Positions 5,836-18,426 of a DNA stretch of 64,000 nucleotides are shown in pieces. The stretch is from an uncultured bacterium (GTDB lineage: Bacteria; Zixibacteria; MSB-5A5; UBA10806). Position numbers and translations under genes: made by a program. The stretch lies in assembly GCA_965541585.1 (NCBI GenBank), contig CBEUCH010000002.1, positions 136,280 through 200,279 of the forward strand, given 5' to 3'. Position 1 is the first letter of the stretch. Each line of letters opens with the position of its first letter. The notes beneath the pieces are model-generated. The model had not been told where the DNA came from and made no database searches. It saw only the letters and a program-made list of their open reading frames with translations.

Positions 5836-8808
5836 TTAATCCGCTGTGGACTCCCGGCTAATCCCGGTTCTGGGATTTAATGAAGGGATTACAAGCAGCC
5901 CGTCCTCTCCCGGTGCTATCAAGCCGCCCTGCCCGGGGCAATCGGGACATCCGCTACCCGGCACAATTAAACCTCTGTATAAACCGATCTCGGTAACCAC
6001 GTCGCCGAGCTCATTGGGTACGCAGCTGCCGTTCGGGTCGGCATCAGGAGTGAAATCCTCGCCGTGGGACGGACAGTGGCACTCGTAAGTCGCTGTGATC
6101 GTGCCTCTGTACATACCGATCATGGCGATAGCGTCGCCCAGCTCCAGCGGGACGCCGTTGTGGTCGCAATCGCCCACGAGATATTGGCAACTCGAAAATT
6201 CGCCGCACGGCGGTGCCAGATTATCGCAGAGGGTGCTGGCGGCGAACCTGGTGCCGTCGCAGTCCAGAATGTGGACGTCATCCTCGCAATCACCGCTGGC
6301 GTCGTCGCAGCAGGCGCCGGCAGGGCCGACGACCTGGCAATCTACGATATCGATCTGGCCGATATAGGCTGCGCGGGCGATCATGTCCTCCTCGTTTGCG
6401 GCGCCGATGATTGCGATTTCAATGCTTACCGACTCCCCGTCATTGAGCGTATAGGGGCCGGTGCTCAAAAGCGATGACATATCATCATACCAATCATCTG
6501 CCACACGGTCGCCATCGTAGCTCATGAGGGTGTAAAGATCCTCCATGAGCCAACCACCGACCGGTGGGTAGATGTAATCCTCCTGGCTGACGGCAGTCAT
6601 GGAACGCAGGTTGACCTCATCGTCGTTAATCAGGCAAAGCCCCATAATATAAGAGAAGTCCGTAGCTCCCTGATACATGAGCTTATTTCCTCGGTCAAAT
6701 ACAACTGTGTCGAAAGAAGGATAGACAACGTCCCAATCGAAGTAGACACCGGCGTAGTAGTCGCTGATTGTCGCGCCGGAATTATTGGTGATGGTGAAAA
6801 TATGGATGAAGATATCGCCGGCCTGCACTACATCGGGGGGCTGGAATCCGATACCACAGTAATTGATATCAACACCACCCATAACGCCTTCATCGTCATA
6901 GGCGCACGTCGGGTGGAAGGGATCCAATAGATTCAGGCTCTCAGTTCCCCTGTAGCGATAGCAATCGGTGGGAGTAGCGCCTGTCTGATTGTAATGAGAA
7001 AACATCCTCGCAGGACCATCTCCCATTACGAAGGTAGCGCCATGATTTGCCGGATCGATGCCGTAGCTATAATTATCATCCTGGTAATCGGGGTCGCCGA
7101 GCGGTCCGTAATTGCTGACCGCACAGTCCGGTATGTTGCCGGTCTCGGCCAGCCCCCGAGGTGTCATGGCTTCCTCGATCCTCAGATCGAAACTGGAAAT
7201 ACAATCAGGAGAGGGATAGCTATCGATCATTATCCAGTAAGTGCCGGGCTGCAGGGTCAAATCTTCTAAACCGTGGGGAGCAGCTACGTTTGATGTCGAT
7301 GAGGCAATACATTCGTTCGAATCGGGCGGGCAAAAATCGTCTACCAGGATTCCTGTAAACGCATCGTCATGTGGGTCGAGAGTGATATCGAGCGTTATGA
7401 CCTCAGAAACCGTAAACTCATAGACGATATCCTCGCCGCCGTCATAGTCGTCAAGACAGGTATCGTCTTGGTCGTTTCCCGCGCCGCACGTCGTCCGACC
7501 TATATCGGAAAATGGCAATTGCGAGTTTATGTCGCCGATAACCACGTCCGGGTTGCATGGGGGCGTCGGCGTACATTCGACCCACATAGTATAATCGTTA
7601 CCCAGAACACCGTTTCCATCACATGCCAGATCCTCGGACCAGTCACTCGGCGCGATCCTTATCCAGTATATTCCGGGAAGCGCTTGCTCCAGTATCCGCG
7701 CCGTTTGGCAGCGGCCGACGATCCGGGAGGTATACTGATAATCCTCGCAATCTTCGTTGCCCACGTCGTCGATGAATAGAAGCTGGAGCGGGAATTCGGC
7801 AATACCTCCAATTTCCAGATCAGATGGTGCAGTCACCTCGAACCTGTACCAGTCGATGTCGCGGTAAAGCCGATCCTCGCCCGGATTATCCGGATCTTCG
7901 CCCAGGAAAACGCCGCTCTTGCCGCATATTGTGTCGCCACATGCAATTTCCGTCCAGATCGGTTCCAGCGGCGGAACGGCATTACATCCGATGTTGAACT
8001 GATCGATATAATTATAGTGGCAATCCGGTTCGGCCTCGGGAATGCCGTTATCGGGGCAGGTAAGTTCGCATAACTGATCGGTGATCACAACGTCATCGAA
8101 AGAACAGGCATAACCCCATTCGGCGTAATAATGCATCGTCAGGGTATGTATATTGCCATCGGCGTAGTCGTCCAGTATCACCGAACGAATTCCCATAAAT
8201 GGAATATTATCAGGCGCCTGGACGAGATCGGCCTGTTCGCCATCGATAAGGACCTCGAAGTAATCCACGGAAGGGACATAAGCCCTGAAATACAACCAGT
8301 AGCTCAGAGTTAGCTGGCTGCCAACAGGAGTTGAAAAGTCGACGGAAATTTCCTCATCTGTGGTCGATCCGAAGCCACCGCCGTAGGAATCTGAACCGAC
8401 CATATAGCCGCCGCCCTGGTTCTCGATGTGACCCCAGGCGTAGTCCCAGGGATCCGGGCGAATTACCCAGTCCTCGGCGCCGCTGCCATCGCCATTGCTG
8501 ACAGCGGTCCAGGCCGGGTCGTTTGTGAAATCGCCGTCCTCGAAATCATCGTAAAGCCAGTCAGTCAGGAAAAGGGGACGTTGCCCCGGTAAGAGGATAG
8601 AGGAATCGAAGAACCGTTCGGTCTTTATAGGGCTTTGCCGCACAGTGCCCCGGTTACTTGCTTGAGGCTTAACTGCGGTGGTCGGCAAACGAAGAATGCC
8701 CGTTCTCGCTGGTTCGGCCAGGGCCGAAACCGTCTTGCCTTCAGCAGCAAGAACGGCCTGCCAGGCGAACAAAGCGAGGGCGAGAGACGAAGTAAATCTT
8801 ATCTTCAT
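5836..8808 (-). CDS. Large acidic secreted multidomain protein with Cys-rich GACC module and dockerin-like C-terminus
   Basis: Signal peptide MKIRFTSSLALALFAWQAVLA, PPC-like modules (DIDWYRF, GEDIVYEF, PGTYWIMID), GACC...C module, and paired GDCDHNG / ADPNGSC EF-hand-like repeats. The start could instead be GTG at 8823. Confidence 0.75.
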   Translation of the reverse strand: MKIRFTSSLALALFAWQAVLAAEGKTVSALAEPARTGILRLPTTAVKPQASNRGTVRQSPIKTERFFDSSILLPGQRPLFLTDWLYDDFEDGDFTNDPAWTAVSNGDGSGAEDWVIRPDPWDYAWGHIENQGGGYMVGSDSYGGGFGSTTDEEISVDFSTPVGSQLTLSYWLYFRAYVPSVDYFEVLIDGEQADLVQAPDNIPFMGIRSVILDDYADGNIHTLTMHYYAEWGYACSFDDVVITDQLCELTCPDNGIPEAEPDCHYNYIDQFNIGCNAVPPLEPIWTEIACGDTICGKSGVFLGEDPDNPGEDRLYRDIDWYRFEVTAPSDLEIGGIAEFPLQLLFIDDVGNEDCEDYQYTSRIVGRCQTARILEQALPGIYWIRIAPSDWSEDLACDGNGVLGNDYTMWVECTPTPPCNPDVVIGDINSQLPFSDIGRTTCGAGNDQDDTCLDDYDGGEDIVYEFTVSEVITLDITLDPHDDAFTGILVDDFCPPDSNECIASSTSNVAAPHGLEDLTLQPGTYWIMIDSYPSPDCISSFDLRIEEAMTPRGLAETGNIPDCAVSNYGPLGDPDYQDDNYSYGIDPANHGATFVMGDGPARMFSHYNQTGATPTDCYRYRGTESLNLLDPFHPTCAYDDEGVMGGVDINYCGIGFQPPDVVQAGDIFIHIFTITNNSGATISDYYAGVYFDWDVVYPSFDTVVFDRGNKLMYQGATDFSYIMGLCLINDDEVNLRSMTAVSQEDYIYPPVGGWLMEDLYTLMSYDGDRVADDWYDDMSSLLSTGPYTLNDGESVSIEIAIIGAANEEDMIARAAYIGQIDIVDCQVVGPAGACCDDASGDCEDDVHILDCDGTRFAASTLCDNLAPPCGEFSSCQYLVGDCDHNGVPLELGDAIAMIGMYRGTITATYECHCPSHGEDFTPDADPNGSCVPNELGDVVTEIGLYRGLIVPGSGCPDCPGQGGLIAPGEDGLLVIPSLNPRTGISRESTAD

Positions 8809-9059
8809 ATCAATCTCGGCCACGATAGTTAAGGGAGTGACAAGACGCTTCTCACTGTCAAGCTTTTTTTAAGCCCGGGAGTTCAGGAATAGTCACCATT
8901 GATACTTGAGCTCTCTTAGTCTTCAAACTTCATTTTGCTTTATCAAAGGGGCGAGATATTTATAATTCTTGTTGTGAAATCTGCATGACTTATATAAATT
9001 GTCGAAAATAAAGGCGTGGTTTTCAGCCCCTGGCGGGTCAATCGTCAGCAATTCGGAGG

Positions 9060-9584
9060 ATGCTATTGAAGCTTAAGATCAAATCACCGGTACTGAAGTC
9101 TCTTGCAAAACTTTACATAGCCTTCGGCGCGATTCTGGTTTTTTTTATTGTCATCTTTAACACCCAGATCTTTTACTTGAATGTCAACGTCCCTTTTACA
9201 TCATTCATCGTTCTTTCATCCAGCTTTTTGATAAATCTGTTCGGAGGAACCTCGTTCGTTGACGGCACTCATCTGTCCACCGCGCAGTTCGGCATCAATG
9301 TCGTCGACGGCTGCAACGGGATCTATGCCACGGCCATACTACTGTCGGGCGTTATCGCGTATCCCGCCAGGCTGACCCATAAGATGCTGGGTGTGCTTGT
9401 TGGAATTGTCGCCATTTTCGTTCTCAACCTGGTGCGGGTGATAAGCCTTCTATATCTCGGGCAGTATTTCCCCGATATATTTAAAGAAATTCACGTTTTT
9501 ATCTGGCAGCCTATCATAATCCTGTGGGCGATCTATATCTGGTATTTGTGGTGGCACAAGATTGAAGGCAAAGAAGCCAAATAA
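9060..9584 (+). CDS. xrtH: Exosortase H (IPTLxxWG-CTERM-specific exosortase/archaeosortase family)
   Basis: Multi-TM protein with catalytic Cys (VVDGCNG), Arg (LNLVRVISL) and His (EIHVFIWQ). An IPTL-CTERM substrate is encoded ~1 kb away. Confidence 0.85.
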   Translation: MLLKLKIKSPVLKSLAKLYIAFGAILVFFIVIFNTQIFYLNVNVPFTSFIVLSSSFLINLFGGTSFVDGTHLSTAQFGINVVDGCNGIYATAILLSGVIAYPARLTHKMLGVLVGIVAIFVLNLVRVISLLYLGQYFPDIFKEIHVFIWQPIIILWAIYIWYLWWHKIEGKEAK

Positions 9585-10152
9585 ATGGTTTTTTCTTCTC
9601 AGGTTTTTGATCGCCTTTGCGATCATTTACCTGCTGTGGAATTTCTCGGCTCCCCTCGCGAATAGAGTGTTTACATTTTTCGGCGGAAATATCCTGATGC
9701 TGTTTGACGGCGCAAACTATACCAGGGCAGTTGAGCCCGACGGTGAATTCATTGTTGTTGTCTTCGGGGCCGGCAAAAATGTTGAAACGCTCAATCTTGA
9801 GTACAAGGGATTCACATTCAACACCGTATTATTGCTGGCGCTGATTCTGGCGGTGCCGGATGTGAATTATAAACTCCGCCTGAAGATATTGATTCTTGGT
9901 ATGGTAGTGCTATACCCGATACAGATTATCAGGCTGGTCATTTTCATTTTCAACTACTATTGCCAGAATATGGGGCGACGAGGCGGGGGTACCTTATACC
10001 CTCAGTTTACGCATAATGCGATCGGCTATGTCGATAAAACGCTGATAAGGATTGATGGCCAGATAATACCGGTATTCATATGGGCTGGATTATTTTATTA
10101 TTACAAGTGGCATAACGTATTTACCAAAATGATGAAAAAGAGATCCGCCTGA
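9562..10152 (+). CDS. Exosortase H-associated membrane protein (exosortase-like, lacks catalytic Cys)
   Basis: TTG start overlapping the xrtH end. Same TM pattern (LLLALILAVP...RLKILILG...IIRL) but YKGFTFN where XrtH has DGCNG. Confidence 0.7.
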   Translation: MKAKKPNKWFFLLRFLIAFAIIYLLWNFSAPLANRVFTFFGGNILMLFDGANYTRAVEPDGEFIVVVFGAGKNVETLNLEYKGFTFNTVLLLALILAVPDVNYKLRLKILILGMVVLYPIQIIRLVIFIFNYYCQNMGRRGGGTLYPQFTHNAIGYVDKTLIRIDGQIIPVFIWAGLFYYYKWHNVFTKMMKKRSA

Positions 10153-10303: not shown

Positions 10304-10513
10304 TTACTCTTCCTCCTTTGACCGTCTACCGTAGTAGATCCAGAGATGAACGATGTAGGCGATGATAATCATACTGATCAAAGTGCCCGCAAGATCCATA
10401 GTGGTAATTGAACCGGCTATCAGAACAACGCCGGTTATACCGGCGATAGCAACTACAAAAGCCACAGCCAGGACCCTGAAGAACACCGAGGGTATGAAAA
10501 TCGGTTCGCCCAT
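10304..10513 (-). CDS. Small two-TM membrane protein coupled to the IPTL-CTERM gene
   Basis: 69 aa, two hydrophobic helices and a basic/acidic tail. The start overlaps the upstream stop (TGATG). Confidence 0.7.
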   Translation of the reverse strand: MGEPIFIPSVFFRVLAVAFVVAIAGITGVVLIAGSITTMDLAGTLISMIIIAYIVHLWIYYGRRSKEEE

Positions 10514-13347
10514 CAGTTGGCTCTTGTCAAAGCAGTTTTACGCCTGCGAACAATAGCGATAGTTCCGGCGGTCAGCAACATCAACCCAAGTATGATCATA
10601 CCCCATTCGGAGAGGGTGGGGATGGCTTCGACGACATCATGCGGCGGCCAGATATCATGCTGCGCGCAACCGGCAGGTTCTACAAGCGATGTTATGGGTA
10701 TAGAGTGATTCACCGCCGGTTCGGCGCATTGGACACACGGTATTGCCTGAAGTCCGGGTATTAGATCAACAGCGCTGGGACCGATCGGTATGTCAGGTAT
10801 ATCGTCGCAATTACTCACTAAATCGCCGACGCTTGATGTATACACGCCGAAGCCCGGATCTGAAAACATCCAGTGACCGTCTTCGATATTCATTAAATCA
10901 ATGGCCGGGATTCCGTAATCACCGTAATCAACATAGTATTCTAAAGCGTCGGATACCCGGGTAAAGACGATTTTCGGGACTACGGGTACATAGGCAAAAA
11001 ACGTGCCTCCTTCTTCACAGACCCGGTCAAAGTTCATTCCGCCTGTTGGCTGCCCGCGGGATTCTGACAGGCACACCTTGACATCCCACGCTTCAGGATT
11101 TTGGCCGCCGTTGTAAGTTACCGTTATAGGTTGACTACTCACTAAACTCAGCGCCACTATCTCGATATCTATATTATGATCCTGAGAGGGACACTGAGGT
11201 AGATTTGCGACTCTACTTCGTTTGATTATTGTGTCGGTGGGCCCTAAATTCCCGTTAGTCGCCAGTGGCTCACCCTCTAAAGCAATAGTACCGGCGAAAG
11301 GATCCGAGCCGGGCCCGAAGAAGTCAGCCGGTATCGGGAGTGTGCTTTCCCCGCAGCCGAGATTCACAAATGTATTGTAGCCTTCCGGCGTTTCCCACAA
11401 GTCGTAAACCGGATCTTCTTGCACTGGACAATCTACATCAACACAGTTCAGGCCGGGGTAGAAGACGCCGCCGTTATCCTCGCAGATAGACTGGGTTTCC
11501 ATTGTGCATAAACCATCGGGCCAGCAGCAGGCGCCTGTTTCCTGAACCGGTTCACTGGTGATGCAGAACGACAGGTCGAGCGATTGCTGACCCGACGGCA
11601 GGCATTCGTGCTCGATAATCCCGGGCTCGTTATCCCAGATTACGAAGTTAAATCCCCTGACATCTACGGAGACCCACTCCGGGTTATACTCCTCAATTAA
11701 AAACCCGAAGAACTCAAATATTTCATAACCGTTTGGAAGGTCGCTCATAACAACCGGGAAGCGCTCAATATGTATTTCATCAGTCGGTTCAGTCGGTGGG
11801 GGCTCACCTGGCGGCCACTCAGGACCTGACCAGTTGATGGCGATCTCAACCCAGGCGGGAGCCCCGGGATCTAATTTCCATACCGAGCCCATTATGGAGA
11901 TTTCCTTGTAGCGCGTGAGATCGAGCGGGTCATTGTAGAACCAGATATTCCACCAACCGCTGGGGTACCAGAACCATCCATTGATACCACCAGGGCCATT
12001 GTAATAATCGGTACCTCCGCTCATCCCGGGAACGAGCTGCCCGCTTTGATCCATCCCCACCCAGAAGGAGTTGACGACCGGCCCGCCGCCTCCACCGGGC
12101 TCGTAAATCTCCGTCCAGAGGTCAGGAGGAAGCGGGGCATCGGGATCCGGGCCCCAAACCGCATCGTCCATCCAGTGATCCTGGGTTGATTTCCATCCCC
12201 AGTGTGTGTTAACCGGATCGACGACATCGGCCGAAATCCTCAACCAGTAAATTTGGCCGACTGTCTGCACGCATGGTTCAGGCAGGAAGTAATCGTAACG
12301 GAAATATTGCTGGTGGTCACCGGGGATAATCTCGCCCTGGACAGGATCATACCATCCCTGTGGAGACGGATCCATAAGGGTGGTGGTGTATTCCCCTTCC
12401 AGTATATACATCGGGGGGCAGACAATTTGGCCCGGTACGCTCCAGCCGTTTGGTCCCACGGGGATATTGTCGTGGATAGTGATCCAAAAGCCCCGGAGTT
12501 GGCCGATATCATCATGCCTCCACGAACCCCACCAATGGATATCCTCGAGCTGGCCCGTCTCCGTGCACTGCCAGTCATCCGCCAGAGAGATGGGAGCGGT
12601 GGCATTAACGTCCCAACCGTTGGGATCCGGCAGCTGCGGGAAATGCATCTTGTGGTTTGCGCAATCACCGTCTTGGCAATTGGGAGAGTTTGTCTCGGTA
12701 TCTACCCAGAAAAGCGGAGCGCCGCCAGAATAATAACTGCTCCACATATACCAAGTGCCCCCAGAATACGCCCAGTGCTCACATGGGACCGGGGGACAGA
12801 TGAGTGGTTCATCCATTAAAAATGAAGGAAGGCTTCCCCCAGGATCGCTATATTCAATACCGATATAGACCGGTCCGTTAACACAGCAGGGAGTCGAATA
12901 AGTTAATGGACCCACAGTGGGATACTCATAAGTGGCGGCATCACAGATAAAAGTCTCACGGCAGAGTTCCGCGCCGGGTCCCGCGCATGGATCTCCGGGA
13001 ATCAGCATATCGTATACCACGAAATCAACCTGAACCGGAAACGGCAAAGCGCCATCGTCATAAAGAGTAATCCACAGTGTAGTTATTTCAAGAGGGTATG
13101 TTGGAGCCGGGCAAACCGCCCATGGATCATAATATGTGATTGCGCGGTCGCCAGTAACCAAGCCTGGATTATAGTAGCCCGGAATATTGCATGTCTTCGT
13201 AAGCAGGCAATAATCAAGAGTGGTCTGCGGCTGTTCGATAGGCAGTACCTCGCCTATTCTCGAGCCTTTTAGTTCACCCTTCGCCATGGCTGCAGTGCCG
13301 AGGATCAGGACAAGGCCGAGGGTTAAAATCAATGACTTTTTAAGCAT
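10513..13347 (-). CDS. Secreted multidomain IPTL-CTERM sorting-domain protein
   Basis: Signal peptide MLKKSLILTLGLVLILGTAAMA (ATG 13347, GGAG RBS), HKMHFPQLPDPNGWDV domain, GACC module, and C-terminus AIPTLSEWGMIILGLMLLTAGTIAIVRRRK. Confidence 0.9.
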   Translation of the reverse strand: MLKKSLILTLGLVLILGTAAMAKGELKGSRIGEVLPIEQPQTTLDYCLLTKTCNIPGYYNPGLVTGDRAITYYDPWAVCPAPTYPLEITTLWITLYDDGALPFPVQVDFVVYDMLIPGDPCAGPGAELCRETFICDAATYEYPTVGPLTYSTPCCVNGPVYIGIEYSDPGGSLPSFLMDEPLICPPVPCEHWAYSGGTWYMWSSYYSGGAPLFWVDTETNSPNCQDGDCANHKMHFPQLPDPNGWDVNATAPISLADDWQCTETGQLEDIHWWGSWRHDDIGQLRGFWITIHDNIPVGPNGWSVPGQIVCPPMYILEGEYTTTLMDPSPQGWYDPVQGEIIPGDHQQYFRYDYFLPEPCVQTVGQIYWLRISADVVDPVNTHWGWKSTQDHWMDDAVWGPDPDAPLPPDLWTEIYEPGGGGGPVVNSFWVGMDQSGQLVPGMSGGTDYYNGPGGINGWFWYPSGWWNIWFYNDPLDLTRYKEISIMGSVWKLDPGAPAWVEIAINWSGPEWPPGEPPPTEPTDEIHIERFPVVMSDLPNGYEIFEFFGFLIEEYNPEWVSVDVRGFNFVIWDNEPGIIEHECLPSGQQSLDLSFCITSEPVQETGACCWPDGLCTMETQSICEDNGGVFYPGLNCVDVDCPVQEDPVYDLWETPEGYNTFVNLGCGESTLPIPADFFGPGSDPFAGTIALEGEPLATNGNLGPTDTIIKRSRVANLPQCPSQDHNIDIEIVALSLVSSQPITVTYNGGQNPEAWDVKVCLSESRGQPTGGMNFDRVCEEGGTFFAYVPVVPKIVFTRVSDALEYYVDYGDYGIPAIDLMNIEDGHWMFSDPGFGVYTSSVGDLVSNCDDIPDIPIGPSAVDLIPGLQAIPCVQCAEPAVNHSIPITSLVEPAGCAQHDIWPPHDVVEAIPTLSEWGMIILGLMLLTAGTIAIVRRRKTALTRAN

Positions 13348-13485
13348 TAAATTCTCCAATTCTAATTGCTTGAATTTATTGTGCTGTCGAGTCTCAATAT
13401 TCGGCAACTTTAATATCAGGTGCAGAGACTCAACACCGCATCTGGATGTTTAGCTCATCCCGGGAGGTTTAATCGGCGGCGCACG
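13346..13485 (-). promoter_or_regulatory. Putative ribosome-stalling-controlled translational attenuator (RAPP codons, anti-SD, hairpins, SD/start)
   Basis: Minus strand: CGT GCG CCG CCG (RAPP, 13485-13474), then ATTAAACCTCC (13473-13463), which can pair with GGAGAATTTAAT (13357-13346, SD plus AT of ATG). Between them lie a GGATG/CATCC hairpin and an 11-bp stem 13435-13425/13395-13385. Confidence 0.6.
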
Positions 13486-14136
13486 GAGATTAGGTAAATA
13501 GTCCCATCTCTTTGTTGAACTGATACCTTCAAAAAGCGGAAATAATTTTCTTGCCAAGGGAAATCTCAAGCCCGCAATTGAGAATCGGATTCGGCTTACA
13601 TACTCGATAAGCATGAGAATTATGGAGTTAACAAGCACGATGAAAAACGAGATCATCAATAAGCCGAAAAGAGATGCAAACCGGATAAGCTCGCTCGAAT
13701 CGGCCGTCGGGAAACTTAAGACGCCTCCCATGCCCGGGTACCTGATCAAGAAATATTCAAGAGGAACCCATATGGCGGCGACAAAAACAGGGTTAAATCC
13801 GATATATTTTTTTGCTCCATTGACGGCCATTCCGAAGATTGAAAAGACCAGGCTCAATAATAATAGATTAAGGAGAAAGTCCGCGGGAGCGGCCAGAGCC
13901 TCGCCAATGAAAGCGACGAAGGCATAGCAGCCGGCAAGAATCACACCCAGCAGAATAGAACCGGCCAAGGTTGTTCTGTTCAATTGCCACAGGAGTGGAA
14001 CCAGGGCAAATAGCGATATGAACCAGTATTCAGGATATATATGGGCAATCGATAGGATTAAAGCCGACGTTCCGGCGCAGATAAAATGAGCCAATAGTCT
14101 CACCGTGATATCGTTATGCCTTGAATCCGCATCCAT
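13450..14136 (-). CDS. Lnt (apolipoprotein N-acyltransferase) N-terminal TM-domain-like protein without nitrilase domain, with C-terminal RAPP motif
   Basis: WFISLFALVPLL, AAIWVPLEYF and LIRFASLFGLLMISFFIVLVN match the Lnt TM region. The protein ends ...WDYLPNLRAPPIKPPGMS with no CN-hydrolase domain. Confidence 0.75.
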   Translation of the reverse strand: MDADSRHNDITVRLLAHFICAGTSALILSIAHIYPEYWFISLFALVPLLWQLNRTTLAGSILLGVILAGCYAFVAFIGEALAAPADFLLNLLLLSLVFSIFGMAVNGAKKYIGFNPVFVAAIWVPLEYFLIRYPGMGGVLSFPTADSSELIRFASLFGLLMISFFIVLVNSIILMLIEYVSRIRFSIAGLRFPLARKLFPLFEGISSTKRWDYLPNLRAPPIKPPGMS

Positions 14137-14730: not shown

Positions 14731-17700
14731 ATGGGGTTGCGTATAATTGTCCTTTCCTTATTTATCCGGGCCACAGCTCTCGGGGTCGAGAGTGGCGATT
14801 TTACTTTTTATGACGGCGAATCGACTGTAGCCGCCACCGTTCAGCAAGTGGATCGTACCGTTTTAAACCTTCAGATCTCGAACCTCGAATATGAAGTTGA
14901 TAGCGATAACGGAATAGACCAATACCGGATTCATTTGCCGGAGGTGTTTGGCGTATCGAGGGGAGCATTTCTGAGTTCGAATAATGTGTTGATCCCTACC
15001 ATAACCAGATCCATTGCCGTACCGTTTGATTCGGAGCCGGTGTTCCGTGTGACCTGGTCGAATTTTGTGGAATTGACGGATATAGTACTTGCGCCTGCAG
15101 GCGAGGAGGAATTGGATTCGTATTCCAACGGCAATGAGAATATCTCATCGAGCCTCGAGAGGGACCTGGTGATCGCGGAAACGGCGGGGATGATGCGGGA
15201 TGTAAGAATATATTCTCTGACGATCTCGCCGGTGCAATATGATTTGGAAAGCAAAGTCGTTAAAGTCTATAACGAAATTGAAATCGAGATCGACCATGGC
15301 GGTTCACGGATGGTACGTTACGAGGACCATATATCGGAGGCTTTCTTGCCGATCTATCGCTCGTTTCTGGATAATCTCCTGGTGTTCGACCCGATTGAGG
15401 TAACCCGTGGCGCCGACTGGATCATATACCCCGATCCTTTCCTCGAACATATACGGCCCATAGCGGAATGGAAAAGGGCCAAGGGTTATGATGTTGAATA
15501 TATTGCCAAAAGCGATATTGGCTCCAACCCATCGTATGTGGCTATAAGAGACTATATCTCGGCGCGTTTCGACTCGTGTCAGATTAAGCCGGATTATATT
15601 ACCATCCTGGGAGACGTCAGCATGCCGTCCGGTTATGGAATCCCTACGCGACACTATGATAATCCTCTGGGTTTTGGCGATATAGAATCGGATAATTACT
15701 ATACGTTTCTCCTGGGTGGCGATTATTTCCCGGATGTGTTAATAGGGAGAATAGCCATAGACTACGTTGCCGAGCTTGAGGATTACACGGATAAGCTTTT
15801 CACATACGAGAGAACCCCGTATATGGATGATACACGCTGGTATTTGAGGGGGACCATGGTCGCGTATTGGGAAGTCGAAGGCGACGGCGGCTGGTATGGA
15901 AATTTCACAAGCCCCAGAATCACGAAGCTCTGGTGTCGCGATCGCATGTTTGAAAGCGGATATATCCAGGTAGATACTCTTTTCGAACATCCCCGGTATT
16001 ATGTTCCTTCCAGCCAGATCAACGCCTCTATAAACAATGGCGTATCCTATGTGAATTACCGCGGCTTTGGCGATCCATCCGGATGGAGTTACCCTTATTA
16101 CACATTTAATGATATTAGCGATCTTACCAACGGTCCCATGTATCCTATAATGACATCCATCGTTTGCGGGACAGGAGACTATAATGACTACCGCGACATC
16201 TGTTTCGGCGAGGCCTGGATACGCTATCCGGACAAGGGCGGGGCAGGATTCATTGGCACCAGTAACCACGATGCTCACACGCGATGGACTAACGCTCTGG
16301 ATGTAGGTATTTACTGGGGCCTGTTCGTAGAACATGCAACGACTATTGCCCAGGCCCAACTAATGGGAAAGATGACGATGTACGACGCTTTCCCAACCGA
16401 CCGTTATCCCAACGGCCAGGTCGAGCTTTATTTCAATAGCTACAATATCCTTGGTGATCCGGAGTTGAATTGCTGGACCGGAGTGCCGAGAAGCATGTCG
16501 GTGGCTCATGCCGATTCGGTGGAATTCGGTCAGAATTATATAAGCGTATCCGTCACCGATAATATGGGGGGCACGCCTCTCGAGGGAGCTTATGTCTGTA
16601 TATGGAAAGATGGGGAACTGTTCCTTGGGGAATTTACTCCCGCGGACGGTGTCGCTGAATTCGCGGCCGGACCGGATACCAGGGGCGAGATGGCCTTAAC
16701 GGTTACTGCCCGCGACTTTGCCCCTTATGAGGGAACCGTTACCTATTTCACCAGCGAGATAACAGTGGGATACAATTCTCATACGGTTGACGACAACAAC
16801 GAAGGCGAGTCCTCAGGCAACGGCGACGGAATCTGCAGCCCGTCGGAGGTTGTAGAGCTCGACCTTACCCTTGAAAATTATGGCCAATCGGAAACCGCTA
16901 TCGGGGTGACCGCGGAGATATCGTCGGATAACTCTCATGTGGAGATTGTGCGCGCTACAGCCGGTTTCGCCGATATTTCTCCGGGCGAGAGCAGCCCCGC
17001 CGATAATCCTTTTTTAATAGAGGTTAGCCCCGACGCACCAAACGGGACAGGTATCGATCTTATCATTTCCATAAGCGATGAAGATGATAACGCCTGGGAA
17101 TCCATTATACAGTTGCCCGTTGAAGCGGCCGAATTCGCAATGGAAGAATTGATCATTCAGGATGACGGCAACGGTATGATAGATCCGGGAGAAACGGTCG
17201 AGCTTGTAATAACTCTCGAGAATGTCGGTGCACAGCCCATGGCGGGAGCGACCGCGGTATTGAGAACGTCCGACGATCAGGTGACGGTTATGGATTCGAC
17301 AGCCTTGTTCGGCGACTGCGTTCCCGGAGGGACTTTCGACAACGATGGCGACACGTTTATGTTAACGGTGGAATCCGATATTTATGTAGGACATTTGATA
17401 AACTTTACTCTGGAGTTCGAGGGCGAGGGGCCGCAAATAGTAACATCCGCTTTTGCCGAACAGGTAGGTGCTGTATCGTCGAGTGATCCCATCGGCCCGG
17501 ACGATTATGGGTATTACTGCTTCGATAACACCGATTCTGCCTATTCCGATCGCCCGGTATATGACTGGATTGATATCGATACTCAGAACTGGAATCACGT
17601 AACATTGGGCGACGACAACACGGAGACGATATCGCTGCCGTTTGAGGTTTGGTACTATGGGCAGATTTTCAGTGAGATCACCATCTGTGACAACGGCTTT

Positions 17701-18426
17701 GTGGCCCTGGGCGAATCCTGGTGGAACGCCTGGTACAATACGTCGATTCCCGCACCTCAGAACGCCGCCGCTATGATCGCGCCTTTCTGGGATGACTTCA
17801 ATCAGAGCAATCTTAGAGTATATTACCATCACGATACCGACAACTCCCGCTTCATAATCGGGTGGAATAATGCCTGGGACCAGGACGTTTACCGGTACCA
17901 GACATTCGAGATAATCTTTCTGGATCGAACCGCCTGGCCGTCCGCCACCGGCGATAACGAAATAATCTTCCAGTATGAGCTTGTTAATAGCGCTTATTCG
18001 TCGTCGGTGGGGATCTGTTCCCCCGATAGAAGAGATGGTATCGGTTATATTTTTAATGGCGATTACGCTGATGGTGCGGCAACCCTAAATAACACCCGGG
18101 CCGTGAAATTCACGACCGGATCTCTATACCAGACCGGTATTGAGGAAGAGCAGGAGTTGCCGGAGAGCATGGCGCTATCTCAAAACTATCCTAATCCCTT
18201 TAATGCCTCTACCTCCATCGATTTTTCGATTCCCGGGGAAGGACACGTAAAGCTCGAGGTATTCAATATCCTCGGGCAGAGGATCGCCATCCTGATCAAT
18301 GGTCATCTGGATGCGGGCTTCCATCGGATTGCATGGGGCGCTGACGATTTGCGTTCGGGGATTTACTTTTACAGGCTGGAGACCGGTGATCTGACCGAAA
18401 CAAAGAGAATGATGCTTTTGAAATGA
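14731..18426 (+). CDS. Peptidase C25 (gingipain) family protein with Ig-like domains and T9SS type-A-like C-terminal domain
   Basis: WKRAKGY, ILGDV, SDNYY...DYFPDVLIGR, VNYRGFG, TSIVCGTG and YNILGDPEL. C-terminus SQNYPNPFNAST...KRMMLLK. Confidence 0.9.
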   Translation: MGLRIIVLSLFIRATALGVESGDFTFYDGESTVAATVQQVDRTVLNLQISNLEYEVDSDNGIDQYRIHLPEVFGVSRGAFLSSNNVLIPTITRSIAVPFDSEPVFRVTWSNFVELTDIVLAPAGEEELDSYSNGNENISSSLERDLVIAETAGMMRDVRIYSLTISPVQYDLESKVVKVYNEIEIEIDHGGSRMVRYEDHISEAFLPIYRSFLDNLLVFDPIEVTRGADWIIYPDPFLEHIRPIAEWKRAKGYDVEYIAKSDIGSNPSYVAIRDYISARFDSCQIKPDYITILGDVSMPSGYGIPTRHYDNPLGFGDIESDNYYTFLLGGDYFPDVLIGRIAIDYVAELEDYTDKLFTYERTPYMDDTRWYLRGTMVAYWEVEGDGGWYGNFTSPRITKLWCRDRMFESGYIQVDTLFEHPRYYVPSSQINASINNGVSYVNYRGFGDPSGWSYPYYTFNDISDLTNGPMYPIMTSIVCGTGDYNDYRDICFGEAWIRYPDKGGAGFIGTSNHDAHTRWTNALDVGIYWGLFVEHATTIAQAQLMGKMTMYDAFPTDRYPNGQVELYFNSYNILGDPELNCWTGVPRSMSVAHADSVEFGQNYISVSVTDNMGGTPLEGAYVCIWKDGELFLGEFTPADGVAEFAAGPDTRGEMALTVTARDFAPYEGTVTYFTSEITVGYNSHTVDDNNEGESSGNGDGICSPSEVVELDLTLENYGQSETAIGVTAEISSDNSHVEIVRATAGFADISPGESSPADNPFLIEVSPDAPNGTGIDLIISISDEDDNAWESIIQLPVEAAEFAMEELIIQDDGNGMIDPGETVELVITLENVGAQPMAGATAVLRTSDDQVTVMDSTALFGDCVPGGTFDNDGDTFMLTVESDIYVGHLINFTLEFEGEGPQIVTSAFAEQVGAVSSSDPIGPDDYGYYCFDNTDSAYSDRPVYDWIDIDTQNWNHVTLGDDNTETISLPFEVWYYGQIFSEITICDNGFVALGESWWNAWYNTSIPAPQNAAAMIAPFWDDFNQSNLRVYYHHDTDNSRFIIGWNNAWDQDVYRYQTFEIIFLDRTAWPSATGDNEIIFQYELVNSAYSSSVGICSPDRRDGIGYIFNGDYADGAATLNNTRAVKFTTGSLYQTGIEEEQELPESMALSQNYPNPFNASTSIDFSIPGEGHVKLEVFNILGQRIAILINGHLDAGFHRIAWGADDLRSGIYFYRLETGDLTETKRMMLLK

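Follow-up and report, generated by a model that had tools for sequence, protein, structure and literature searches.

Why should a small membrane protein that resembles the N-terminal part of the acyltransferase Lnt end in Arg-Ala-Pro-Pro (RAPP), a motif that arrests ribosomes in other proteins, and why should its gene stand directly before that of an exosortase-sorted surface protein? The question is raised by a locus in a 64,000-nt stretch of DNA from an uncultured bacterium of the Zixibacteria (GenBank assembly GCA_965541585.1, contig CBEUCH010000002.1, positions 136,280 to 200,279), which we call the window and whose numbering is used throughout. An earlier reading of this DNA, the original prediction, had taken the locus for a new arrest-peptide system in which a stalled ribosome uncovers the Shine-Dalgarno (SD) sequence of the surface-protein gene. 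Conservation and gene order suggest that the protein, LntN-RAPP (LntN for short), is on balance a "leader protein" that acts in cis through translation arrest of the RAPP type, and whose pause would set the expression of the gene downstream. A stall at Pro220/Pro221 is considered likely.

The elements of the LntN-RAPP gene are as follows.

13450 to 14136, minus strand: LntN-RAPP gene, an open reading frame (ORF) of 228 aa coding for a membrane protein with LNT_N as its only Pfam domain and a RAPP end
13594 to 13695, minus strand: sixth and last hydrophobic segment, residues 148-181, from a Kyte-Doolittle scan
13486 to 13593, minus strand: predicted cytoplasmic linker, residues 182-217, of constant length in the motif-anchored comparison of C-ends
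13486 to 13512, minus strand: conserved block [KR]-R-W-Y-Y-F-P-D-x, inside the linker and directly before the motif
13474 to 13485, minus strand: RAPP codons CGT GCG CCG CCG, residues 218-221; motif found in 93 of 94 distinct C-ends
13450 to 13473, minus strand: tail IKPPGMS and stop codon, not conserved in the family comparison

An Lnt-like membrane protein without the enzyme

The sole Pfam domain of LntN-RAPP is LNT_N (PF20154), which spans residues 24-171 and scores 41.7 bits against a cut-off of 27.1. The Pfam scan found no nitrilase (CN-hydrolase) domain, and the full-length Lnt model TIGR00546 reached 21.5 bits, below its cut-off of 132.9. The gene had been described as the membrane bundle of Lnt cut off before the nitrilase domain, and that description holds: the protein shares the N-terminal membrane domain with Lnt but is without helix 7, the periplasmic nitrilase domain and helix 8. 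Because the catalytic domain is absent, LntN-RAPP is, judged from its domain content, not an Lnt-type acyltransferase. A genuine Lnt of 516 aa (TIGR00546, 311.6 bits) is encoded elsewhere in the same genome, and residues 43-175 of LntN-RAPP align with its residues 44-179, weakly (hhalign E = 0.0065). A profile search of PDB sequences with the LntN family returned no Lnt match and one spurious match (E = 0.063). In view of these two results, the kinship with Lnt is taken from the Pfam assignment.

The hydrophobicity scan found six hydrophobic segments. Since residues 182-228 form a basic tail (nine Lys or Arg against two Asp or Glu), the C-terminus is placed in the cytoplasm. The C-end reads ...KRWDYLPNLRAPPIKPPGMS, with the complete ending ...WDYLPNLRAPPIKPPGMS before the stop codon, that is KRWDYLPNL-RAPP-IKPPGMS, with RAPP followed by seven codons as first described. 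A second Pro-Pro (K-P-P-G) occurs in the tail at 13459-13470 (minus strand) and is not kept in homologs; its codons, CCUCCC, make up the anti-SD of the original prediction. Pro-Pro motifs of the K-P-P-G type need EF-P. The best promoter-like site for the operon, TTGACA-17-TATCTT at 14476-14448 (minus strand), lies about 310 nt 5' of the LntN start, which would imply a long untranslated leader for LntN-RAPP.

Conservation of the RAPP motif

A search space of 5.8 billion proteins yielded 58 relatives of LntN-RAPP, mostly 210-280 aa long; the annotations of three (P0003, P0005 and P0007) carry N-terminal extensions. Their membrane domains are 36-87% identical, and in an alignment of the 58 the residues R218, P220 and P221 are at least 90% conserved. 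Scans of genomes and metagenome contigs gave 49 loci, two of which were excluded as non-members (L049, a cut ORF of 100 aa, and L050, an Lnt-like protein of 529 aa). All of the remaining 47 loci and the window carry R-x-P-P near the C-end: 38 RAPP, 6 RGPP, 2 RSPP, 1 RTPP and 1 RDPP.

Conservation of RAPP in homologs had been set beforehand as a test by which the original prediction could be refuted. When the 58 homologs and the 48 translated loci were pooled into 94 distinct C-ends, R-x-P-P was present in 93 of them (77 RAPP, 7 RGPP, 4 RDPP, 4 RSPP and 1 RTPP), and the sole C-end without it belongs to a fragment of 130 aa. The C-ends were anchored on R-x-P-P, so that Arg, Pro and Pro are 100% conserved by construction and the informative result is the count of 93 of 94. 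With this anchoring the four motif positions carry 3.35-4.3 bits (R, P and P being fixed), and positions -9 to -2 before the motif carry 1.9-3.0 bits, with the consensus [KR]-R-W-Y-Y-F-P-D-x. The positions after Pro-Pro carry 0.46-0.97 bits each, and the tail that follows the motif varies in length from 0 to 49 aa, with a median of 7. A conserved Asn of the last helix stands at -48 from the motif Arg in 89 of 93 C-ends. The linker is therefore without insertions or deletions; about 40 residues separate the end of the last helix from the Pro predicted to occupy the P site, and the roughly 40-residue spacer noted in the window proves to be a property of the family.

In a sample of the phylum, 56 of 201 genomes (34 of 108 genera) carry the family, with one to seven copies each. 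The three copy-richest genomes hold 7, 6 and 5 copies, all 18 with R[AG]PP. On this sequence record LntN-RAPP is a family of Lnt-N-only proteins and not a broken gene.

The motif is depleted from the bacterium's own genome. Counts on a greedy ORF set, as distinct from gene-caller output, gave 4 RAPP where 9.2 were expected from composition and 0 RGPP where 9.8 were expected, while AAPP and AGPP occurred 10 times each against expectations of 12.4 and 13.2. Within this ORF set, no R[AG]PP other than that of LntN lies close to the C-end of a membrane protein, and none of the proteins with R[AG]PP is encoded upstream of a sec or yidC gene.

The downstream gene and the exosortase context

Next to LntN-RAPP, on the same strand, lies the gene whose expression the pause would set, and the genes for exosortase H and its associated membrane protein stand beyond it.

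10513 to 13347, minus strand: gene for a signal-peptide protein of 944 aa with DUF7901 (PF25470, 148.8 bits) and IPTL-CTERM (PF18203, 28.9 bits; TIGR04174, 27.3 bits)
13345 to 13357, minus strand: SD sequence GGAG (13357-13354) and start codon ATG (13347-13345) of that gene
9060 to 9584, plus strand: exosortase H gene, xrtH (TIGR04177, 97.6 bits against a cut-off of 86), convergent with the operon
9562 to 10152, plus strand: gene for the XrtH-associated membrane protein (NF041730, 40.9 bits against a cut-off of 35), convergent with the operon

Both IPTL-CTERM models score above their cut-offs on the 944-aa protein, in agreement with the original identification of the gene. The components of an exosortase H/IPTL-CTERM system, namely XrtH, the XrtH-associated membrane protein and IPTL-CTERM substrates, are thus all present above cut-off.

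The order of leader and substrate is a feature of the family. LntN is followed by a signal-peptide ORF in the window and in 44 of the 47 loci. Of the other three, L019 and L023 lie on contigs that end 219 and 136 nt past the LntN stop codon, and L030 has no such ORF within 3997 nt. Downstream start codons were picked heuristically, and the IPTL-like C-end was recognised by a regular expression of our own ([IVLM]P..-type, then a helix and an Arg cluster). So defined, it is present in 34 of 39 downstream ORFs flagged as complete, and the tie to an exosortase-substrate gene extends from the window to the family. Of the five exceptions, one ORF in fact runs off its contig (L026), one was mis-picked, a fragment with a VPTLTEWG-type signal lying 344 nt downstream (L017), and one has the signal in the next-but-one gene (L010); L007 has a variant signal and L048 none. 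Pfam IPTL-CTERM was above cut-off in 10 of 20 sampled downstream proteins, in addition to that of the window. DUF7901 is found in 7 of 8 downstream proteins sampled from the window's closer relatives, and the passenger domains of the other sampled proteins are caspase-like, SdrD_B, DUF6073 or none.

XrtH, its partner or both occur in the examined flanks of 11 of the 47 loci and of the window. Among the 18 copies of the three richest genomes, 13 precede an IPTL-type gene, 3 have a downstream gene that runs off the stretch and 2 are without a signal in the first gene; each of these genomes has two XrtH matches. As the copies outnumber XrtH and 13 of 18 precede a substrate, the constant partner of LntN is the adjacent substrate gene and not the sortase. 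Such a pattern would be expected of an element acting in cis, or of a partner dedicated to one substrate, more than of a core part of the sorting machine. The window's own genome has 32 IPTL-CTERM model matches above cut-off, several of them clustered (e.g. C3:169911-174438, C24 and C29), against a single xrtH-linked LntN-RAPP gene.

One subfamily (L042-L044, L047, L048 and L059-L062) precedes very large proteins, of over 930 to over 1280 aa, in which an N-terminal signal peptide leads into A(Y/F)PP(S/A/T)GYDV, and one of these matches DUF6073. The two complete examples (L048 and L062) have a Cys/Pro-rich end and no recognisable sorting signal. In the window an ORF of 69 aa with two hydrophobic segments (10304-10513, minus strand) starts on the last base of the stop codon of the IPTL-CTERM gene. 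This overlap is typical of translational coupling; the family matches of the ORF are weak and sub-threshold.

Comparison with known arrest peptides

Arrest by RAPP and RGPP has been established experimentally for other proteins, including proteins with four transmembrane helices (4-TM; PMC12992588). Proteomes are depleted in RAPP-like motifs, which are however enriched towards the C-ends of secretory and membrane proteins of small size (PMC12992588), and Fujiwara et al. (EMBO J 2025; PMC12992588) describe RAPP and RGPP near the C-ends of such proteins, 4-TM proteins included, upstream of genes unrelated to Sec or YidC. The claim of a new arrest-peptide system was therefore overstated, as RAPP/RGPP on small membrane proteins before diverse genes was already published there.

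The sequence features of that class are found in LntN: a motif near the C-end (RAPP or RGPP in 84 of 94), a length under 300 aa with membrane segments, conservation up to the A-site codon followed by divergence, and a co-directional gene 102 nt downstream. LntN-RAPP is thus probably a well-supported addition to the already known RAPP/RGPP class. It resembles CruR of Bordetella and seven Streptomyces lividans proteins (among them the 4-TM SLIV_33595/33605, 18480 and 27375) in being a membrane protein under 300 aa with R-[AG]-P-P close to the C-end (PMC12992588; Roy et al. 2022 as cited there). Further shared features are a co-directional downstream gene outside the protein-localization machinery, conserved membrane helices and a motif depleted from the proteome. 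Unlike the CruR and S. lividans proteins as described there, LntN has an N-terminal part that is a recognisable six-helix, enzyme-related domain, and its downstream gene encodes an exosortase-H-type substrate in nearly all loci. The LntN family is multi-copy in some genomes. It also belongs to an uncultivated lineage, its named relatives being labelled Zixibacteria, and stalling is here predicted from sequence.

ApdA and ApdP, RAPP peptides encoded upstream of secDF, have been studied by cryo-EM (Morici et al. 2024; PMC10951233) and by saturation mutagenesis (PMC12992588). The motif Arg is irreplaceable in both, and so is the P-site Pro of ApdA, whereas in ApdP only P133G partly kept arrest (PMC12992588). 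In place of the Ala, Gly is fully permissive or better and Ser, Asp and Pro are partly so; Thr is not among the permissive residues reported (PMC12992588). The variants found at position 2 of the LntN motif, A, G, D and S, match this list, and a single Thr is the exception. Residues N-terminal to RAPP contribute collectively to stalling (PMC10951233). LntN resembles the Apd peptides in its core motif, in a contributing stretch of 5-12 residues before it and in the predicted stall, in which a Pro would occupy the P site while Pro-tRNA waits in the A site. It differs in having a polytopic domain and a substrate gene where the Apd peptides have a signal peptide and regulate secDF, and its residues upstream of the motif are unrelated to theirs.

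The likeness to SecM, MifM and VemP is one of layout. The motif sits towards the C-terminus of a protein that is exported or membrane-bound, the downstream gene is in the same predicted transcript, the ribosome-binding site (RBS) in the window is paired, and a stalled ribosome would cover the local partner of that RBS. The aromatic W at -7 of LntN recalls the SecM motif FxxxxWIxxxxGIRAGP, as quoted in PMC12992588. In contrast to these systems, the gene downstream of LntN does not encode Sec, YidC or SecDF, the search for a conserved helix that hides the SD was negative, and the targeting element lies about 40 residues from the stall site and not far upstream. Because the gene it precedes is outside the Sec/YidC machinery, LntN-RAPP is not a strict monitoring substrate.

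Proposed mechanism

The layout suggests how such a leader might work. Six Lnt-like transmembrane helices would be followed by the 36-residue basic cytoplasmic linker of fixed length (182-217) and by [KR]RWYYFPDxRAPP. By analogy with ApdA, ApdP and CruR (PMC12992588), Pro220 (13479-13477) is assigned to the P site and Pro221-tRNA (13476-13474) to the A site; in this state no peptide bond would form and the ribosome would pause. At that moment the end of helix 6 (around residue 180) would stand about 40 residues from the peptidyl-transferase centre, just out of the tunnel, so that a pull exerted by the integration or packing of this last helix could release the ribosome. How long the pause lasts would then set expression of the co-transcribed gene for the IPTL-CTERM (XrtH-sorted) surface protein, most likely through remodelling of a structured spacer RNA that keeps its RBS paired. 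Such a stall might report on general insertion capacity, on folding of the Lnt-like bundle, on a lipid or on contact with XrtH, and it might either raise or lower downstream expression.

In force profiles, about 40 residues is the range in which a nascent chain is pulled by a helix partitioning into the membrane. Ismail et al. (2012) reportedly found this pulling force to be biphasic. A linker of strictly constant length, as in the aligned family, fits this geometry.

A bolder version, which we regard as speculative and improbable, makes the Lnt-derived bundle a true sensor. The RAPP arrest would be released when the bundle folds around a membrane lipid or docks to free exosortase H, and each paralogue would gate its own surface protein by membrane or sorting capacity. 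If this were true, LntN would be the first arrest peptide with a repurposed enzyme domain as its sensing part, and exosortase systems would for the first time have a known regulatory input.

RNA structure between the two genes

The proposed route through RNA was examined by folding the window sequence and the corresponding regions of the other loci. Three features are involved.

13348 to 13449, minus strand: intergenic spacer of 102 nt, structured relative to shuffled sequences by minimum free energy (MFE)
13463 to 13473, minus strand: anti-SD of the original prediction, AUUAAACCUCC, complementary to the SD region and disfavoured in the ensemble
13485 to 13488, minus strand: CUCC, in the codons of L217 and R218, the favoured local partner of the SD in ensemble folding of short contexts

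The original prediction had paired 13473-13463 with 13357-13346 as 6 bp plus 4 bp, with hairpins between the arms. The pairing is correct base for base, and the intervening hairpins are as described, but it is not the favoured fold: when forced it gives -35.3 kcal/mol, which is 4.1 above the MFE of -39.4, and in the ensemble it takes up 0.06 of the 3.93 units of pair mass that fall on the SD. The CUCC at 13488-13485 instead pairs with the SD at a probability of 0.96-0.97 per base in contexts of 165 and 171 nt (3.85 units in the latter). This pairing is lost in contexts of 231 and 371 nt, where the SD takes other partners. CUCC would also be covered by a ribosome that stalls while Pro220 occupies its P site. 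In short context, the pair mass linking footprint and RBS reaches 2 units or more in 15 of 44 loci.

Comparisons of the footprint across the family used 40 non-redundant loci, after removal of duplicates (L018, L034 and L035) and of loci with gaps below 0 or above 300 nt or with N (L008 and L017). In this set the anti-SD/SD pairing, which had been expected to covary, is neither enriched nor covarying. Constrained and ensemble folding, footprint masking (44 loci), duplex energies and partner profiles (40 loci) and RNAalifold on two subgroups gave the anti-SD pairing no family-wide support, and as a conserved mechanism it was rejected.

The RBS of the window is nonetheless strongly paired. Its mean unpaired probability is 0.158, as compared with a median of 0.457 for 250 control genes of the same genome, of which 1.2% are as low. 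The window spacer folds at -25.9 kcal/mol against -17.3 for shuffles (z = -2.86), and spacers of the family are likewise more stable than their shuffles: the mean z is -1.89, 15 of 39 fall below -2, and a t-test gives p = 6e-7, a figure that overstates independence as the loci are related. Because the window RBS is strongly paired and the spacers are structured, a role for RNA structure was kept: it probably takes part in control, and the spacer structure is retained as a likely element. A simple consensus scan found no promoter-like or terminator-like site within the window spacer on this strand, and the spacer has no Rfam match. The 242-nt spacer of L011 (identical with L034 and L035) is far above the others, at -97.3 kcal/mol against -65.4 for shuffles (z = -7.5).

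Several observations weigh against a leader that acts through RNA structure, or against a leader altogether. RBS accessibility across the family is ordinary, at about 0.16-0.71. Complementarity between footprint and RBS is not enriched in the 40 loci (median percentile 0.43, 4 of 40 at or below 0.05, Kolmogorov-Smirnov p = 0.47), and the duplex in the window, at -7.9 kcal/mol, ranks at the 26th percentile when set against 199 further 31-nt segments of that gene. In 10 of the 40 loci the footprint takes a larger share of RBS pairing than expected (Wilcoxon p = 0.26), and with 150 nt of upstream context that share is 0.00 in the window. RNAalifold gave a consensus helix between CCUCC (the Pro-Pro codons) and GGAGG in one subgroup of five loci, without compensatory changes, and no footprint-SD helix in a second subgroup of six. 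On the protein side, the residues S24, A25, P47, W123 and E127 of the membrane domain are invariant in the alignment of the 58 homologs, which suggests a function of its own beyond insertion. The leader precedes just 1 of the 32 IPTL-CTERM genes of its own genome. The loci are related, so that statistics across them overstate their independence. Finally, it is not obvious what logic there would be in inducing a Sec- and sortase-dependent substrate when insertion has failed.

Alternative explanations

An alternative that we consider unlikely accepts the RAPP stall as real but gives it a purpose other than SD unmasking. The chain with its six inserted helices would tether the bicistronic mRNA at the membrane near Sec, XrtH and LntN, in the manner of XBP1u, or the stall would shield the transcript from Rho or RNases. 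All the evidence from motif and synteny applies to this explanation, which also accords with the lack of a conserved anti-SD pairing, with the variable distance from P site to downstream start (64-302 nt across loci) and with downstream products that are always exported proteins. The strongly paired RBS of the window and the structured spacers fit an RNA switch better, and we know of no bacterial precedent for arrest-based tethering of mRNA.

It is similarly doubtful that LntN is a working sorting accessory dedicated to the neighbouring substrate, for example by holding its C-terminal anchor or presenting a lipid to XrtH, with RWYYFPDxRAPP as a cytoplasmic docking motif and any pausing incidental. 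The membrane domain of Lnt handles phospholipid and lipoprotein substrates. An accessory role would account for a membrane domain with invariant residues at 36-87% identity and for the presence of XrtH and its partner near 11 of the 47 loci and in the window. It leaves unexplained why the motif is precisely one that proteomes avoid, that of the same genome included, and why the residues tolerated at position 2, one Thr aside, match those of arrest mutagenesis. Conservation moreover ends at the A-site residue, with tails down to 0 aa, and LntN copies exceed the number of XrtH.

That LntN-RAPP is a decayed lnt remnant, a truncated pseudogene with RAPP and pairing by chance, could be entertained from the presence of the N-terminal Lnt domain alone and of a full lnt elsewhere in the genome, but it is ruled out by the family data, with 58 homologs of mostly uniform length, carriers in 56 of 201 genomes of the phylum sample, a conserved motif and linker, and a relation to Lnt that is distant (hhalign E = 0.0065, no Lnt match among PDB sequences).

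Other genes of the locus

The locus is flanked by genes for very large secreted proteins, one of 995 aa (5836-8823, minus strand) and one of 1231 aa (14731-18426, plus strand). The latter ends in a motif that resembles a C-terminal sorting domain of the Por/type IX secretion system (T9SS) type and is a candidate for one.

Significance

In the literature on arrest peptides, exosortase H/IPTL-CTERM and LNT_N we found no paper that ties an Lnt-like protein or an exosortase substrate to an arrest motif. The terms "Lnt", "apolipoprotein", "acyltransferase", "CTERM", "sorting", "exosortase" and "Zixibacteria" are all absent from the body text and figure legends of PMC12992588, whose figure labels or supplements could list such a class. 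What distinguishes LntN-RAPP within the RAPP/RGPP class is the enzyme-derived polytopic part with its presumed sensing role, the tie to an exosortase substrate and the multi-copy layout of one leader per substrate.

For the study of arrest peptides the family is useful in being well populated (56 of 201 genomes), polytopic and fixed in its helix-to-stall distance of about 40 residues. The last two properties make it a natural force-profile construct, suited to testing whether helix integration or bundle folding releases a RAPP arrest. Exosortase systems are widespread, and the control of their substrates is almost unknown. A conserved cis element before selected substrates, in up to seven copies per genome, offers a handle on which substrates carry the element and when they are made. 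If LntN-RAPP does act as a leader, the membrane domain of a housekeeping enzyme would be reusable as a leader protein.

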